A DNA stretch of 52,379 bases from Candidatus Thorarchaeota archaeon (lineage in GTDB: Archaea > Asgardarchaeota > Thorarchaeia > Thorarchaeales > Thorarchaeaceae): positions 1 to 52,379 of the forward strand of contig JBHLQM010000013.1 of the NCBI GenBank assembly GCA_048884785.1, given 5' to 3'. Under the pieces are notes generated by a model. It did no database searches. It was not told where the DNA came from and saw nothing but the letters and a program-made list of their open reading frames with translations. A program made the translations under genes and the position numbers. The first letter of the stretch is position 1, and every line of letters begins with the position of its first letter. Shown piece after piece: positions 22,401 to 27,010 of this stretch.

Positions 22401-24389
22401 CTAATCTGGACGTTTGTAAATCCTCAGTTTGAAGAAGGAGTAACTCATCAACAGCATGATTACACTCAGCAGTGTGACCGGTGAAACAACTGTAATCCAG
22501 TGTTCTCTCGGGTCCCAGTCAATGCCATCGGGAATTCCATCCTGGTCCGTATCTGCGCTCGTTGGCGACATACAATACTCAACTTCGTAGGCATCACTCC
22601 ATCCATCTGCGTCTGTGTCTGAGGTGAATGGGGACAGGAGGTTGAGTATTTCAAAGAGGTCACTCAGAGAGTCTTCATCTGTATCTGGCGAGAGTGGGTT
22701 GAGACCCATCTCATACTCAAAACCATCTTCAAGTCCGTCTCGATCCGAATCATCGCTGAGTGGGTCTGTTCCGATAACATAAACTTCGAGGTAGTCATCG
22801 AGACCGTCCGAATCCGTATCAGCAGATATGGGATTAGTGCCCAATTCCGCCTCAGTCCCATCTCCAATCCCATCGTTGTCAGTATCATTGGACACAAGGC
22901 TTGAGCCCCATGTGAACTCGTTTAGGTCGGATGCACCATCTCCATCAGAGTCACTCGAAGCAGGATTCGTTCCTAGTTCAAGTTCAAAATCGTCATCTAG
23001 TCCATCTCTGTCAGAATCCCGAAGATATGGAGAAATACCTAATGAAACCTCAACTGGATCAAATAGTGTATCACCATCGGCGTCCTCAAGTGCAGTGATT
23101 ATGAGTGAATAGTTGGTGGGATTTGAACCAACGTTTGTAACATTAAAGGAATAGCTGCCGTAGCTGAGGACAAGGTATTTCATGACAATTACGCCGTCAT
23201 CCTCGGTTCTTTGATAGAGGACTTGGCCTGATGTGGGATTGAAAATAACAGCATTGATGGTTGTATCGGCATCCCATGATATTGTAGCATTAAGGTACCC
23301 TACTGTCGTAACGGTAGTTCTTACTACTGCACTCTCGTCGACTTGAAGTACATCGCTTCGATATCTCTCAGCCGCAACACCTGTTCCCAGAAAGCCAATA
23401 TAGGCAACAACTGCAGCAGTGGATGCAACAAGCTCAGCGGCCTTGGCGAAGCTGAAGTCCGGGTTACTCCATAAGTCGTTTGCAGTGCTTGATATTGGAT
23501 CATAGATGTAACCTTGTGAGATATGCATAGCGGGTCGTCCTACCATCCACATCTCATGAGCTAATGACCTCTCTGCAATTTCAAGATCCATGACACGCTG
23601 AATGAAACCATTGCCGTAATTTGATGAATACTGCACCAAGAAATCTGGTATCCAGAGTTCATCATGAAATAGGCCCTCCTGCGAATCACTTCTGATGGAT
23701 ATTTTGAGGCCATAGAGGTATCCTGACCGATGGAAGAGAATTCTATCAAATGCGATGCCTGAGAATGTATCTATCTCATTCTCATCGAGCCACTGAACAA
23801 ATGCTCTTCCCCCATAGTCAATATCCTCGTCAAGATGTACACCATTTAACAGCACATAGTAAACATCATATGCGAGAGAATAATTATGAAGCAATCGAGC
23901 CAGTTCTAGTACAGCTGCAACACTCGCTCCTGCATCATTTGCACCGGGTGTCGTTTCTGAATCAATTATCCCTGATAGAGCAAATGCTGGTCTAGGACTA
24001 GGTCCTGTACCCTCTTTAATTGCCAGAAGACTCTGATATTCAGTAACCTGAGAGAATGCAAGTTCATTCTGCGTGTTGGTCTTTAGTGTGGCATTTGCCC
24101 ACGCCCAGGCATCAATCAGATTCTGACTTGGTCCTTCATCCCATATCCTAGAGGGATAATCTTCGCAGAGGTCTCTTGTATAATTACCGATATTATCTAT
24201 AGATTTTGCAGACCAAATTTCCTCAAAGAGTTCTGTAGCATTGAAGTATAGTTGGTCAGAGGGAACTGCTCTGGATTGAAGTACACCTTGGCTGAAATAA
24301 ATGCCGCCACCAGAGGCAATAATTGATTGTCCGAGAAGCAACGAGGTAATTAGGAGAATGGATGCGCCTCTGAACCTAATACTTCTCAT
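22401..24389 (-). CDS. Surface protein: degenerate M28 peptidase domain + PPC-like domain + TSP3-type Ca-binding repeats + TM anchor (paralogue B)
   Basis: Signal peptide from ATG 24389 (MRSIRFRGASILL...), SGIIDS...PGANDAGASVAAVLELARLL, nine DxDxD repeats, C-terminal TM plus KLRIYKR. Confidence 0.8.
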   Translation of the reverse strand: MRSIRFRGASILLITSLLLGQSIIASGGGIYFSQGVLQSRAVPSDQLYFNATELFEEIWSAKSIDNIGNYTRDLCEDYPSRIWDEGPSQNLIDAWAWANATLKTNTQNELAFSQVTEYQSLLAIKEGTGPSPRPAFALSGIIDSETTPGANDAGASVAAVLELARLLHNYSLAYDVYYVLLNGVHLDEDIDYGGRAFVQWLDENEIDTFSGIAFDRILFHRSGYLYGLKISIRSDSQEGLFHDELWIPDFLVQYSSNYGNGFIQRVMDLEIAERSLAHEMWMVGRPAMHISQGYIYDPISSTANDLWSNPDFSFAKAAELVASTAAVVAYIGFLGTGVAAERYRSDVLQVDESAVVRTTVTTVGYLNATISWDADTTINAVIFNPTSGQVLYQRTEDDGVIVMKYLVLSYGSYSFNVTNVGSNPTNYSLIITALEDADGDTLFDPVEVSLGISPYLRDSDRDGLDDDFELELGTNPASSDSDGDGASDLNEFTWGSSLVSNDTDNDGIGDGTEAELGTNPISADTDSDGLDDYLEVYVIGTDPLSDDSDRDGLEDGFEYEMGLNPLSPDTDEDSLSDLFEILNLLSPFTSDTDADGWSDAYEVEYCMSPTSADTDQDGIPDGIDWDPREHWITVVSPVTLLSVIMLLMSYSFFKLRIYKRPD
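22518..23084 (-). repeat. Coding tandem repeat: 9 x ~22-aa TSP3-type units
   Basis: DxDxDGLxDxxExxxGTxPxxx units, ~66-nt period. Confidence 0.9.
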
Positions 24390-24454
24390 ATTTATTTTCA
24401 GCATCCCATTCCGATTAAATACATTATTGACAAAGCAGCCACTTTTTGTCATGG

Positions 24455-26458
24455 TTATCCCCCTCGCAGATATGCTCGGCGTTTGAGAAGTAAGACCAAT
24501 AGAATGATGACTGAAATCACTCCCAAACCAGCAAAGGGTATTATGTTGATCCAATGTTCCCTCGGTGCCCAGTCAATGGCATCTGGTATTCCATCTCGAT
24601 CTGTATCAGGATCAAAAGGCATGAGACAATGCTCAATCTCGTATGAATCACTGAGACCATCTTGGTCTGTATCAGCTGAGAGGGGGTTGAGTGCGTTAAG
24701 GGCCTCAAAGAGGTCACTGAGCCCATCCTCATCAGAATCTGGCGAGAGCGGATTTGTACCAAGGTTAACCTCTTCAGAGTCTTCGAGTCCATCTCGGTCA
24801 GAATCAGGAGATAGCGGATCTGTTCCTATCTCAATCTCGATATTATCCATGAGCTGGTCTTGGTCAGTATCGCTATCTGTCGGACTCAGACCATTAGCAA
24901 TCTCAAACCCATCAAAAAGGGTGTCGCCATCAGAATCTTGAATGAGTGGGTCACTTCCATATTGCACCTCAATGCCATCAAATGCTCCATCCAGGTCCGA
25001 GTCTTGGATGCGGGGGTGAGTACCATATACTATCTCCAAATCGTCACTCAGAAAGTCCGAGTCTGTATCAGACGATAGGCTATCAGTTCCATATATGAAC
25101 TCGTGATAGTCGTCCAAGGTATCCCAATCAAGGTCTTGATAGTGTGCAAAAGAATACGTTATAGTTGCAGCATTGTCGCCAATGTTTTCAACACGAAGTG
25201 TATATGACCCTCGAATAGGGGGGAGATAGCTTATGTGGATCAAATTGTCGTTCTCAACTCTCTGATAGACGAGCTGACCTGCTGGGCCACGAATTTGAGC
25301 ATCAAGGGTTGTATTTGTACCCCAAGCAAGTGTAACATTTACATAAGACTGTCCTGTAAGAGCCATAGGTGTCTGAAACGTGGCATTGACTGCAAGGCCC
25401 GCGGACCCAGTGAGTACAGGAGCATCACCTCTTGCCAAAACCCCGATGGTGGCAACAAACGACGCAGCGACTCCTGCTGCTTCAGCGATATTGCCATAGT
25501 CATAGAACCAGCGGTCCCAACTGTCTTCCATTGTTTGCCAAAGGTAATCATCATAGTACTGCCCTAAGCTGATACTGGCAATTCCCCTCCGGCAACTGGA
25601 GTACGCTCCGGATTCAGTCCATAGGCCTCCAACGGTGACATTAGAAACCACGAGGTCGTTTGTCCCTGACTTGGTAGTAATCTGCGTCGCTATTTCCTTT
25701 GCCCATCGTATAGGATCAAAGGGAAATGCAAGGTAATCATAATCCATTCTGATCTTATCGCCATTCGGATCTAATGTTGTATAGAGAAGCCGATTAAACC
25801 AAATCACAGCCGCTGGACGCCTACCCATTTCTTCAAGCTCATCAAGCAGGTATTCAAATCCCAGATTTCCGTAATCCTGGGCCCCGTATCCTCCTATGAT
25901 TGTGTTAGAGAGGACAAAATACACATCATTGGTTAGGTTGAATCCATGAAGGATGTTGGCACATTCTAATACTGCAGCAGCCGTAGAGGCAAATCCATTT
26001 GCGCCTTGAGTATATCTGCTTGCAATGGTCCCTCCAATAATAATGGGGGCGAGATTGGAGTCAGAACCCTCCTTTATCGCAACAAGATTAAGCTGTTCTG
26101 TCCTGAAGGTGAAATATATCTCATTGCCAGTATAGGCCTTGATGGTGTCATTGACAAAAGCCCAGGCTGCGCGTAATTGATTTGATCCATCCTTGTCAAT
26201 TGGAAACCAGACCCTCTGACCATATGTCGTGGCTAGAGTGTGAACAAGGTTTTCTGTCCTAGTTTCATCAACAATTGAAAAAACTGTATCCCAGATTGTT
26301 TCCATGGAGAATGTATCTGCCGGAGCCATTCGTACACTCGGTTTTAGAACTTCATGCGATAATTCCGTAGTACTGATTATTCCTCCGCCAGGACTCTGAA
26401 GAGTGGTGGATAGAATAAAAACCAGGAATATGCATGAATTAACTAGGCTCCGTTTCAT
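24455..26458 (-). CDS. Surface protein: degenerate M28 peptidase domain + PPC-like domain + TSP3-type repeats + TM anchor (paralogue A)
   Basis: Signal peptide, NLVAIKEG...IIIGGTIAS...GANGFASTAAAVLE, nine DxDxD repeats, TM plus KRR. Confidence 0.8.
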   Translation of the reverse strand: MKRSLVNSCIFLVFILSTTLQSPGGGIISTTELSHEVLKPSVRMAPADTFSMETIWDTVFSIVDETRTENLVHTLATTYGQRVWFPIDKDGSNQLRAAWAFVNDTIKAYTGNEIYFTFRTEQLNLVAIKEGSDSNLAPIIIGGTIASRYTQGANGFASTAAAVLECANILHGFNLTNDVYFVLSNTIIGGYGAQDYGNLGFEYLLDELEEMGRRPAAVIWFNRLLYTTLDPNGDKIRMDYDYLAFPFDPIRWAKEIATQITTKSGTNDLVVSNVTVGGLWTESGAYSSCRRGIASISLGQYYDDYLWQTMEDSWDRWFYDYGNIAEAAGVAASFVATIGVLARGDAPVLTGSAGLAVNATFQTPMALTGQSYVNVTLAWGTNTTLDAQIRGPAGQLVYQRVENDNLIHISYLPPIRGSYTLRVENIGDNAATITYSFAHYQDLDWDTLDDYHEFIYGTDSLSSDTDSDFLSDDLEIVYGTHPRIQDSDLDGAFDGIEVQYGSDPLIQDSDGDTLFDGFEIANGLSPTDSDTDQDQLMDNIEIEIGTDPLSPDSDRDGLEDSEEVNLGTNPLSPDSDEDGLSDLFEALNALNPLSADTDQDGLSDSYEIEHCLMPFDPDTDRDGIPDAIDWAPREHWINIIPFAGLGVISVIILLVLLLKRRAYLRGG
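24572..25135 (-). repeat. Coding tandem repeat: 9 x 22-aa TSP3-type units
   Basis: DSDRDGLEDSEEVNLGTNPLSP-like units, 66-nt period. Confidence 0.9.
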
Positions 26459-26506
26459 AGGTTGGAGAGTCCATCGAACTCCAGTTATATGTTGCGAAAG
26501 GCGCTA

Positions 26507-27010
26507 TCATAAATCTGCGATTTGATTGATGTCAATTGATGATTGCTTTACGATATCTACAAGCCGAGTGATATTCGCGTTGGAAATTATTGGAATATCC
26601 TTCTTTGTTGTATCTAGTGATGTTCCTTCCCAGATTACGATTGCCTTCACATCTCTTGGTAGAACATCTACCTCCTGTGATTTCTCACCCACGCACCAAA
26701 ACTTGGGCACTTCGAGTTCCTTGAATCCTTCGAGCAAAAGAAAATCTGCTGAGAGGGACTGTGTCAAATCCCTAATCTTGATTCGTTTGTTATGCCAGAC
26801 AGTTGTTGTATTTGGACCCAAAAGGACCGTCGGGGTCGCTCCGGCTTCGCTATGACGCCATGTGTCGGTACCTTCGGGGGCTTTTATGTCTTCCATTGAA
26901 TTCTTGATACTAACCACCGAGAGTCCCTCTGAAGTCAATTGCTGGATTATTTGTTCAAGTAGGAAGGTTTTTCCAGAAAATGAGAATCCTGATACTGCAA
27001 ATACGCGCAT
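26507..27010 (-). CDS. mobB: Molybdopterin-guanine dinucleotide biosynthesis protein B
   Basis: VSGFSFSGKT P-loop, EGTDTWRHSEAGA, DFLLLEGFK..VPK. Confidence 0.85.
   Translation of the reverse strand: MRVFAVSGFSFSGKTFLLEQIIQQLTSEGLSVVSIKNSMEDIKAPEGTDTWRHSEAGATPTVLLGPNTTTVWHNKRIKIRDLTQSLSADFLLLEGFKELEVPKFWCVGEKSQEVDVLPRDVKAIVIWEGTSLDTTKKDIPIISNANITRLVDIVKQSSIDINQIADL

Follow-up and report, generated by a model that had tools for sequence, protein, structure and literature searches.

The window analysed here, a 52,379-nucleotide stretch of contig JBHLQM010000013.1 from a Candidatus Thorarchaeota archaeon (assembly GCA_048884785.1), carries two adjacent genes, A and B, whose products are predicted surface proteins with M28-peptidase-fold heads that no longer hold a canonical active site. 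Gene A (24455-26458, minus strand; 667 amino acids, from the open reading frame (ORF) and its translation) is followed on the same strand by gene B (22401-24452, minus strand; 683 amino acids from the ATG at 24452). The B frame is open from 24554, and its most likely real start is the ATG at 24452, which lies 2 nt past the TAA stop of A and 6 nt past the purine tract GAGGGGGA; domain and residue numbers for B are given throughout as ORF residues. The two proteins are 37% identical over their entire length (E 6e-109) and share one domain order: an N-terminal signal sequence, an M28-fold head of approximately 295 residues, an eight-strand beta-sandwich, nine repeats, a W-x-P-R-E-H-W motif, one transmembrane helix and a basic tail (KRR in A). 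Their homologues bear the name Candidatus Thorarchaeota, in keeping with an Asgard host.

All features of the pair lie on the minus strand. In A, a putative signal peptide (residues 1-26; 26381-26458), recognized in the translation by a basic N-terminus followed by a hydrophobic run and by the alignment of orthologue N-termini, precedes the M28A-fold domain (approximately residues 49-341; 25436-26314), delimited from the AlphaFold2 (AF2) model m38452cab5e3d and a residue map, and the beta-sandwich (residues 346-438; 25145-25423), whose eight strands were assigned by DSSP of the model. The stalk (24581-25135) consists of nine DxDxDxxxD repeats of TSP3 type with a 22-residue period, identified by motif count and Pfam PF18884, and is followed by WAPREHW (24551-24571) and the transmembrane helix (24485-24544), both read from the sequence. 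The corresponding elements of B, identified in the same ways, are the M28A-fold domain (residues 103-389; 23388-24248; AF2 model mc0e8705e8770), the beta-sandwich (residues 394-488; 23091-23375), a stalk of nine TSP3-type repeats with the same 22-residue period (22527-23084), WDPREHW (22497-22517) and the transmembrane helix (22431-22490). Scores against PF18884 (TSP3_bac) were 48.3 bits for A (8.7e-13) and 33.1 bits for B, above the cut-off of 25 in both cases, and by this Pfam criterion the stalks are predicted to be calcium-binding repeats of TSP3 type. The WxPREHW motif, directly N-terminal of the transmembrane helix, is kept in A- and B-type proteins, with H635 and W636 (A numbering) invariant in 19 sequences, and is not present in either of the two active stalked paralogues that the same genome encodes (on contigs 55 and 2); it could serve as a signal for sorting, processing or pairing. 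Upstream of A, the spacer at 26459-26506 (minus strand) is a candidate promoter of an A-B operon; a TATA-like ATATAA at 26485-26490 (minus strand) lies approximately 27-32 nt before the ATG of A with no obvious leader, a position that would suggest a leaderless A-B transcript.

That both heads have an M28 fold, as an earlier note on this DNA had proposed, was borne out by structure models and by matches to bacterial aminopeptidases, and nothing pointed to a different fold. The Pfam M28 profile (PF04389) matched B only marginally (23.8 bits against a cut-off of 21.3) and did not match A at E values up to 1. Models of the head and sandwich of each paralogue, built from a 64-sequence alignment, reached a predicted local distance difference test (pLDDT) score of 94.0 for A and 93.4 for B and a predicted template modelling (pTM) score of 0.93 and 0.92, respectively. 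In an exhaustive structural comparison with 48,161 Protein Data Bank (PDB) representatives, the A model matched the Aneurinibacillus aminopeptidase 2ek8 (Z 30.7), the Aeromonas aminopeptidase (AAP; 1rtq, Z 30.2, root-mean-square deviation (rmsd) 2.6 Å, 269 of 291 residues aligned, model residues 10..304 on 1rtq residues 3..291), Legionella LapB (5gne, Z 30.1) and Aspergillus LapA (Z 29.5). Foldseek, a check that the note had suggested, placed M28 aminopeptidases on top for both models and in the same order (LapA, LapB, AAP and SGAP, then glutaminyl cyclases), with E values of about 1e-14 and with TM scores of 0.76-0.78 against 1amp (0.78 for B), and a language-model look-up returned prokaryotic M28 clusters only. 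Profile searches of the PDB found 2ek8 at 4.7e-27 (98 bits, 200 residues) and AAP at 3.7e-19 when active members were included, and AAP at 4e-4 when the profile was made from dead members alone; a single-sequence PDB search with B gave only capsid matches, which were rejected as spurious hits drawn by the acidic repeats.

The models show an uninterrupted fold of approximately 295 residues followed by an all-beta domain. An apical (PA) insert could not be accommodated, since the alignment to the Aeromonas enzyme already covers 269 of its 291 residues. Both heads are therefore modelled as M28 (clan MH) folds of the compact M28A type, with neither the PA insert nor the C-terminal helical domain of M28B proteins. 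They share this compact fold (rmsd 2.6 Å, 257-269 residues) with M28A enzymes such as AAP (1AMP/1RTQ), SGAP, LapA/LapB and 2EK8, together with the PGAN loop, the LE helix, the DxYF strand and the final D of the yHTxxD motif, but differ from them in the loss of metal ligands (five in A, both His in B), in the replacement of Glu151 and of the SDH motif, and in the fusion of the head to a beta-sandwich, a TSP3 stalk and a transmembrane anchor. The segment of A that stands in place of the Glu-Glu pair carries a 7-residue insertion, and confidence in the model is lowest in this loop (pLDDT 69, model residues 151-160).

The Zn1 ligands of AAP are Asp117, Glu152 and His256, and its Zn2 ligands are His97, Asp117 and Asp179 (PMC7522609). 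Their equivalents were located by aligning the family profile to PDB sequences and counting residues along 1amp, a count that was cross-checked by the titles of PDB mutant entries (E151H, D118N, M180A and S228A fall where expected). The His97 position is T144 in A and I196 in B, Asp99 is A146 and D198, Asp117 is G155 and D207 (the residue right after GAN), the general base Glu151 is Q194 and D242, Glu152 is D195 and E243, Asp179 is N222 and D270, and His256, within the yHTxxD motif, is Q308 and S356; the SDH motif (Ser228-Asp229-His230 in AAP) reads S-G-A in A and S-L-A in B. By this alignment A retains none of the five metal ligands and no catalytic Glu, D195 and Q194 being variable across clade A, and B has lost both His and retained the carboxylates D207, E243 and D270.

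The pattern recurs across orthologues. Among 29 A-type sequences, none has His at position 97 or 256 and none has Asp at position 117, and Asp at position 179 occurs in one. His is likewise absent at either position from all nine B-type sequences, in which Asp117 is kept in seven and an acid at position 179 in all nine, while the Glu152 position is acidic in 3/9 and the base position is Asn in 3/9. The two His are missing from all 38 orthologues, yet an intact H-D-E-D-H set is found in 29 of 43 more distant relatives, and the loss of the His is thus not a chance or single-sequence effect. Clade A shows no alternative conserved set of His, Cys, Asp or Glu; the residues of these kinds that it does conserve are likewise conserved, away from the site, in active enzymes. 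Neither protein has the canonical active site of an M28 metallopeptidase.

The earlier note had reached much the same view from six motifs, all of which are present in the translations where it had read them (minus strand; GGTIAS 26018-26035, GANGFA 25988-26005 and SNTIIG 25892-25909 in A; SGIIDS 23958-23975, GANDAG 23928-23945 and NGVHLD 23829-23846 in B). Its claim that the zinc-binding His is absent holds, T144 and I196 standing in its place and no orthologue having it, and the fifth ligand, outside the motifs that the note considered, is lost too (Q308 and S356, never His in the 38 orthologues). The claim that the Glu-Glu pair is absent stands for A and for most B orthologues but not for this B, which has D242-E243, and the pair had been misplaced: its equivalents lie not in SNTIIG and NGVHLD but downstream, past a short insertion (Q194-D195 and D242-E243). 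The broader statement that both domains are without catalytic residues is thus right for A, from which everything has gone, and right in part for B, which keeps D207, D270 and D198.

Residues have also been gained. A Gln (Q300 in A, Q347 in B) is invariant in 19 aligned sequences (17 A-type, B and P0020) and absent from the active enzymes, and two residues after the SDH position there is a Glu in 9/9 B-type sequences and an acidic residue in 26/29 A-type sequences, although this A has Ser287. Clade B has in addition gained a His (H344, 8/9) and an Asp (D246, 8/9) near former active-site elements; H344 aligns with AAP Met242, a residue that lines the S1 pocket. The shared Gln, the shared Glu and the B-specific H344 and D246 argue that the pocket of these heads is not simply decaying.

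A search with the B head against 1.84 billion representative proteins (E < 1e-3) returned 72 relatives, comprising A-type proteins, B-type proteins and proteins of approximately 610 residues with intact sites, the last annotated by NCBI as M28 peptidases of Thor- and Lokiarchaeota. Two paralogues of intact type, with a domain order identical to that of A and B, are encoded in the same genome: one on contig 55 (G000:C55:22294-24159; L015 1189-3054) with the five ligands H-D-E-D-H and the catalytic Glu151, and one on contig 2 (G000:C2:54614-56326; L016 1123-2835) with the five ligands but with Leu in place of the SDH-motif His (His230 equivalent), which is not a ligand. These active stalked proteins, of which MBD3407434.1 and TFG07411.1 are further examples, come closest in sequence among the proteins that lie outside the A/B clade; like A and B they have a signal peptide, an M28 domain, a beta-sandwich, acidic TSP3-type repeats and a C-terminal transmembrane helix, but they keep the five ligands, have fewer repeats, are without WxPREHW and are only 24-30% identical to A and B.

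The phylogeny that the note had called for was obtained in part, as a quick IQ-TREE analysis of 79 heads that included active M28s and left out eukaryotic sequences, nicalin and nicastrin among them. A-type sequences were monophyletic (Shimodaira-Hasegawa-like approximate likelihood-ratio test (SH-aLRT) 99), as were B-type sequences (97), and the two groups were sisters (99) on a long stem, adjoining the active Thor- and Lokiarchaeota M28 proteins that share their domain order. As neither clade has either His, parsimony suggests that both were probably lost before the duplication that produced A and B.

Distribution was examined in 31 relatives and then in 301 genomes across the Asgard phylum. 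Strong A/B matches were confined to the Thorarchaeota family to which the window belongs, and 224 genomes representing 29 other Asgard families had no copy of the pair. Within the family, intact A and B frames occur in at least 13 genera, with heads that are 37-56% identical across genera, core residues that are invariant and one TGA in one genome as the only frame disruption. In that genome (G161:C13:33935-34819; L049 5901-7688) A is missing from the locus and the B orthologue contains the in-frame TGA, for which gene breakage, a sequencing error or a recoded codon are possible explanations.

At each of the 12 loci fetched, B comes directly after A and on the same strand; four of the junctions are 4-nt overlaps and the rest short gaps or overlaps, and the two genes are translationally coupled in 12 genomes. 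In three species of the window's own genus, A and B form a single ORF of 1356-1359 amino acids (G003:C52, L033 3069-7139; G005:C33, L034 6479-10552; G006:C305, L035 5192-9271), one of which is MDF1538913.1, annotated by NCBI as 'M28 family peptidase'. The fusion junction consists of the transmembrane helix of A, a basic linker of approximately 35 residues (..YAKNNAFN..) and the hydrophobic signal-anchor of B, a make-up that would leave both heads outside the cell. Fusion and translational coupling are the usual genomic signature of two proteins working together, and we infer that A and B do so at the cell surface. Genus g6 has the same backbone (ABC/FtsX cluster, MobB, OGG and primase) with neither A nor B, and B is the copy found in every lineage in which the locus is filled. 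The B-only genera (below) and the empty g6 locus together suggest that B is the core protein, that A is accessory and that the whole unit is dispensable.

We consider it likely that A and B are non-catalytic surface proteins derived from stalked aminopeptidases, whose heads serve as binding modules and which probably associate with one another. In such a scheme, a stalked surface aminopeptidase would have been duplicated and would have diverged in one Thorarchaeota family, active copies persisting in the genome; both His would have gone first, the A/B duplication would have followed, and afterwards A would have lost the remaining ligands while B kept three carboxylates. The products would be a co-expressed pair of type-I surface proteins, each with a dead M28A head on a beta-sandwich and a nine-repeat calcium-binding stalk that, stiffened by calcium, would hold the head away from the membrane. 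The heads would not hydrolyse peptides but could act as binding modules for a peptide, protein or cation ligand, with A and B associating at the cell surface as accessory and core, respectively. Since zinc could not be bound in the canonical way, a non-proteolytic role in binding or scaffolding is the most likely one, in agreement with the earlier proposal of receptors or scaffolds rather than proteases.

Several points weigh against this account. The missing activity of A and B is deduced from their residues, and B retains D198, D207, D242-E243 and D270 along with the clade-conserved H344 (8/9) and D246 (8/9), which could form a rebuilt metal site. The case for association is made by gene coupling and fusions only, and pairing is not obligatory, since genus g12 (three genomes, 96-99% complete) and, within g10, at least G161 carry B alone at the same locus; another g10 contig (G015) breaks off immediately upstream of B and says nothing about the presence of A. 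The tree comes from a quick search, has several long branches and contains no eukaryotic sequences.

The retained carboxylates give rise to the alternative that B remains a metallo-enzyme, by itself or together with A, with a His-poor, carboxylate-rich site, possibly completed by H344 and D246. Conservation within clade B lends this some substance, since D207, E243 and D270 and, at the base position, D242 are kept in this B, the Asp117 position is Asp in 7/9 and position 179 acidic in 9/9, H344 and D246 recur in 8/9 each, and B is present wherever the locus is filled. A site of this sort has also been proposed for GPAA1, a eukaryotic multi-pass M28-fold protein of a five-subunit complex, the GPI transamidase (7W72), that, like B, is without both canonical His and has carboxylates at the Asp117, Glu152 and Asp179 positions (PMC7522609). 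Its site residues are Pro, Asp, Asp, Glu and Tyr, zinc binding has been modelled there, and the pattern in B is closest to that of GPAA1 as tabulated in the same source (PMC7522609); no sequence-level link between the two was detected. However, none of the nine B-type sequences has either His ligand, just 3/9 have an acid at the Glu152 position, the base is Asn in 3/9 and the SDH motif has become S-L-A, and we regard a metal-dependent activity of B, whether residual or new, as improbable.

A more specific version of the non-catalytic reading is that A and B form a heterodimeric surface receptor in which a remodelled pocket, built from the Gln, the Glu, H344 and D246 of B and the retained carboxylates, captures a specific ligand. 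Possible ligands would be a metal or the N-terminus of a peptide, and within a membrane machine the pair might act as the substrate-recognition subunit. We consider a receptor in this full form distinctly improbable.

Another alternative is that the heads have no function in themselves, A and B being structural envelope or stalk proteins that carry a decaying M28 remnant. The former active-site positions are variable in clade A, the Glu-Glu loop of A is its least confidently modelled segment and g6, whose locus is identical in other respects, has no A-B unit. We consider this very unlikely because the head remains 37-56% identical across genera with an invariant core and frames intact save for the one TGA, because the models are very confident and because the gains at Q300/Q347 and two residues past the SDH position are conserved by clade.

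Dead M28 folds serving as receptors or scaffolds have been well studied in eukaryotes, where the innovation of a dead M28 as receptor was made at least four times (TfR, nicastrin, nicalin and GPAA1). Nicalin (7TM3, 6W6L) and nicastrin resemble A and B in being type-I single-pass proteins with a non-catalytic M28-fold ectodomain; A and B, too, are single-pass membrane proteins by their domain order, with an ectodomain of M28 fold. Transferrin receptor 1 (TfR1) is alike in kind as a dimeric receptor on a dead peptidase fold, but M28B proteins (TfR1/GCPII) are type-II with an inserted apical (PA) domain and a helical dimerization domain, whereas A and B are type-I and have no insert. Among the matches listed in the structure searches, the best inactive M28 was TfR1 (Z 26.8), and the GPI-transamidase chain 7w72_A had Z 19.4; nicalin and nicastrin were not among the matches listed (lowest Z 18.1), and many active enzymes were closer.

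At the sequence level the likeness to nicalin is limited to a generic motif and that to nicastrin is nil. A profile of mixed active and dead members matched nicalin at E 1.8e-6 (30 bits) over 50 residues around a generic GAxD-SG-helix motif and matched no nicastrin chain in the PDB at E values up to 10, and a profile of dead members only found neither nicalin nor nicastrin at E values up to 10. The Nicastrin family (PF05450) had no match in A or B (E up to 1) or in the whole genome (E up to 0.1). Nor was a presenilin-type or nicalin partner gene found at the A/B locus; SPP-type presenilin (PF06550) had no match in the genome, which is 91% complete, and the TMEM147 model (PF09767) had none either, a result that is uninformative as this model matched nothing in control genomes. 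On contig 6, and thus away from the A/B locus, a 300-amino-acid frame shows a weak match, below threshold, to the C-terminal portion of the Presenilin family model (PF01080; G000:C6:18588-18821; 24.5 bits, cut-off 34.3), and its product may be a presenilin/SPP-like protease of archaeal type.

The tree position beside active Asgard M28s, the restriction to one family and the result of the dead-only profile argue for an independent origin of A and B, and we favour the view that their likeness to nicastrin, nicalin, TfR and GPAA1 is convergent, of kind and not of descent. Of the two options left open in the earlier note, 'convergent with or related to' those proteins, the first is therefore kept and the second finds no support in profiles, tree or distribution; nor does the compact M28A fold support a specific kinship or architecture shared with nicastrin, nicalin or TfR. 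That A and B share a specific ancestry with nicalin and nicastrin, as a substrate-receptor subunit of an intramembrane or translocon complex, is extremely unlikely: the shared topology (signal peptide, inactive M28 ectodomain and one C-terminal transmembrane helix), the Asgard host, the nicalin match with the mixed profile and the presenilin-family match on contig 6 are outweighed by a 50-residue generic match that vanishes with the A/B-only profile, the lack of a Nicastrin Pfam match or SPP-type presenilin, the far greater closeness of bacterial aminopeptidases in sequence and structure, and the confinement of the pair to one Thorarchaeota family, beside active Asgard enzymes in the tree.

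The standing of A and B as a real pseudo-peptidase pair, specific to their lineage and an archaeal variant of a known theme, is well supported. A literature search on Asgard and archaeal nicastrin, nicalin and M28 found no characterized archaeal dead-M28 case and nothing on the A/B family. One genome holds a graded series that runs from an active protein (contig 55) through loss of the SDH His only (contig 2) and retention of carboxylates only (B) to nothing left (A), and this series, with the natural A-B fusions and the B-only lineages, offers a tractable system for following the passage from surface peptidase to non-enzymatic protein. The analysis also removes a tempting but wrong inference, that of a nicastrin/nicalin ancestor in Thorarchaeota with relevance to the origin of eukaryotes. 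If the heterodimeric receptor were nevertheless real, an Asgard archaeon would have arrived at the dead-M28-as-receptor innovation independently of eukaryotes.

The neighbours of the pair are housekeeping genes, namely those for primase large subunit, OGG glycosylase, a metallo-beta-lactamase-fold protein, MobB and an ABC/FtsX cluster. A is flanked by a MobB-like P-loop gene (26507-27010, minus strand) and, beyond it, by a divergent cluster on the plus strand (from 27158 up to 34849) that encodes an ABC ATPase, two FtsX-type permeases of approximately 965 amino acids and a second ATPase. A functional tie of A and B to this doubled FtsX/MacB-type ABC cluster or to MobB was considered and rejected: the region is syntenic across the family, and the g6 backbone (L050) exists without A-B, which argues that the adjacency is inherited synteny with no sign of shared function.

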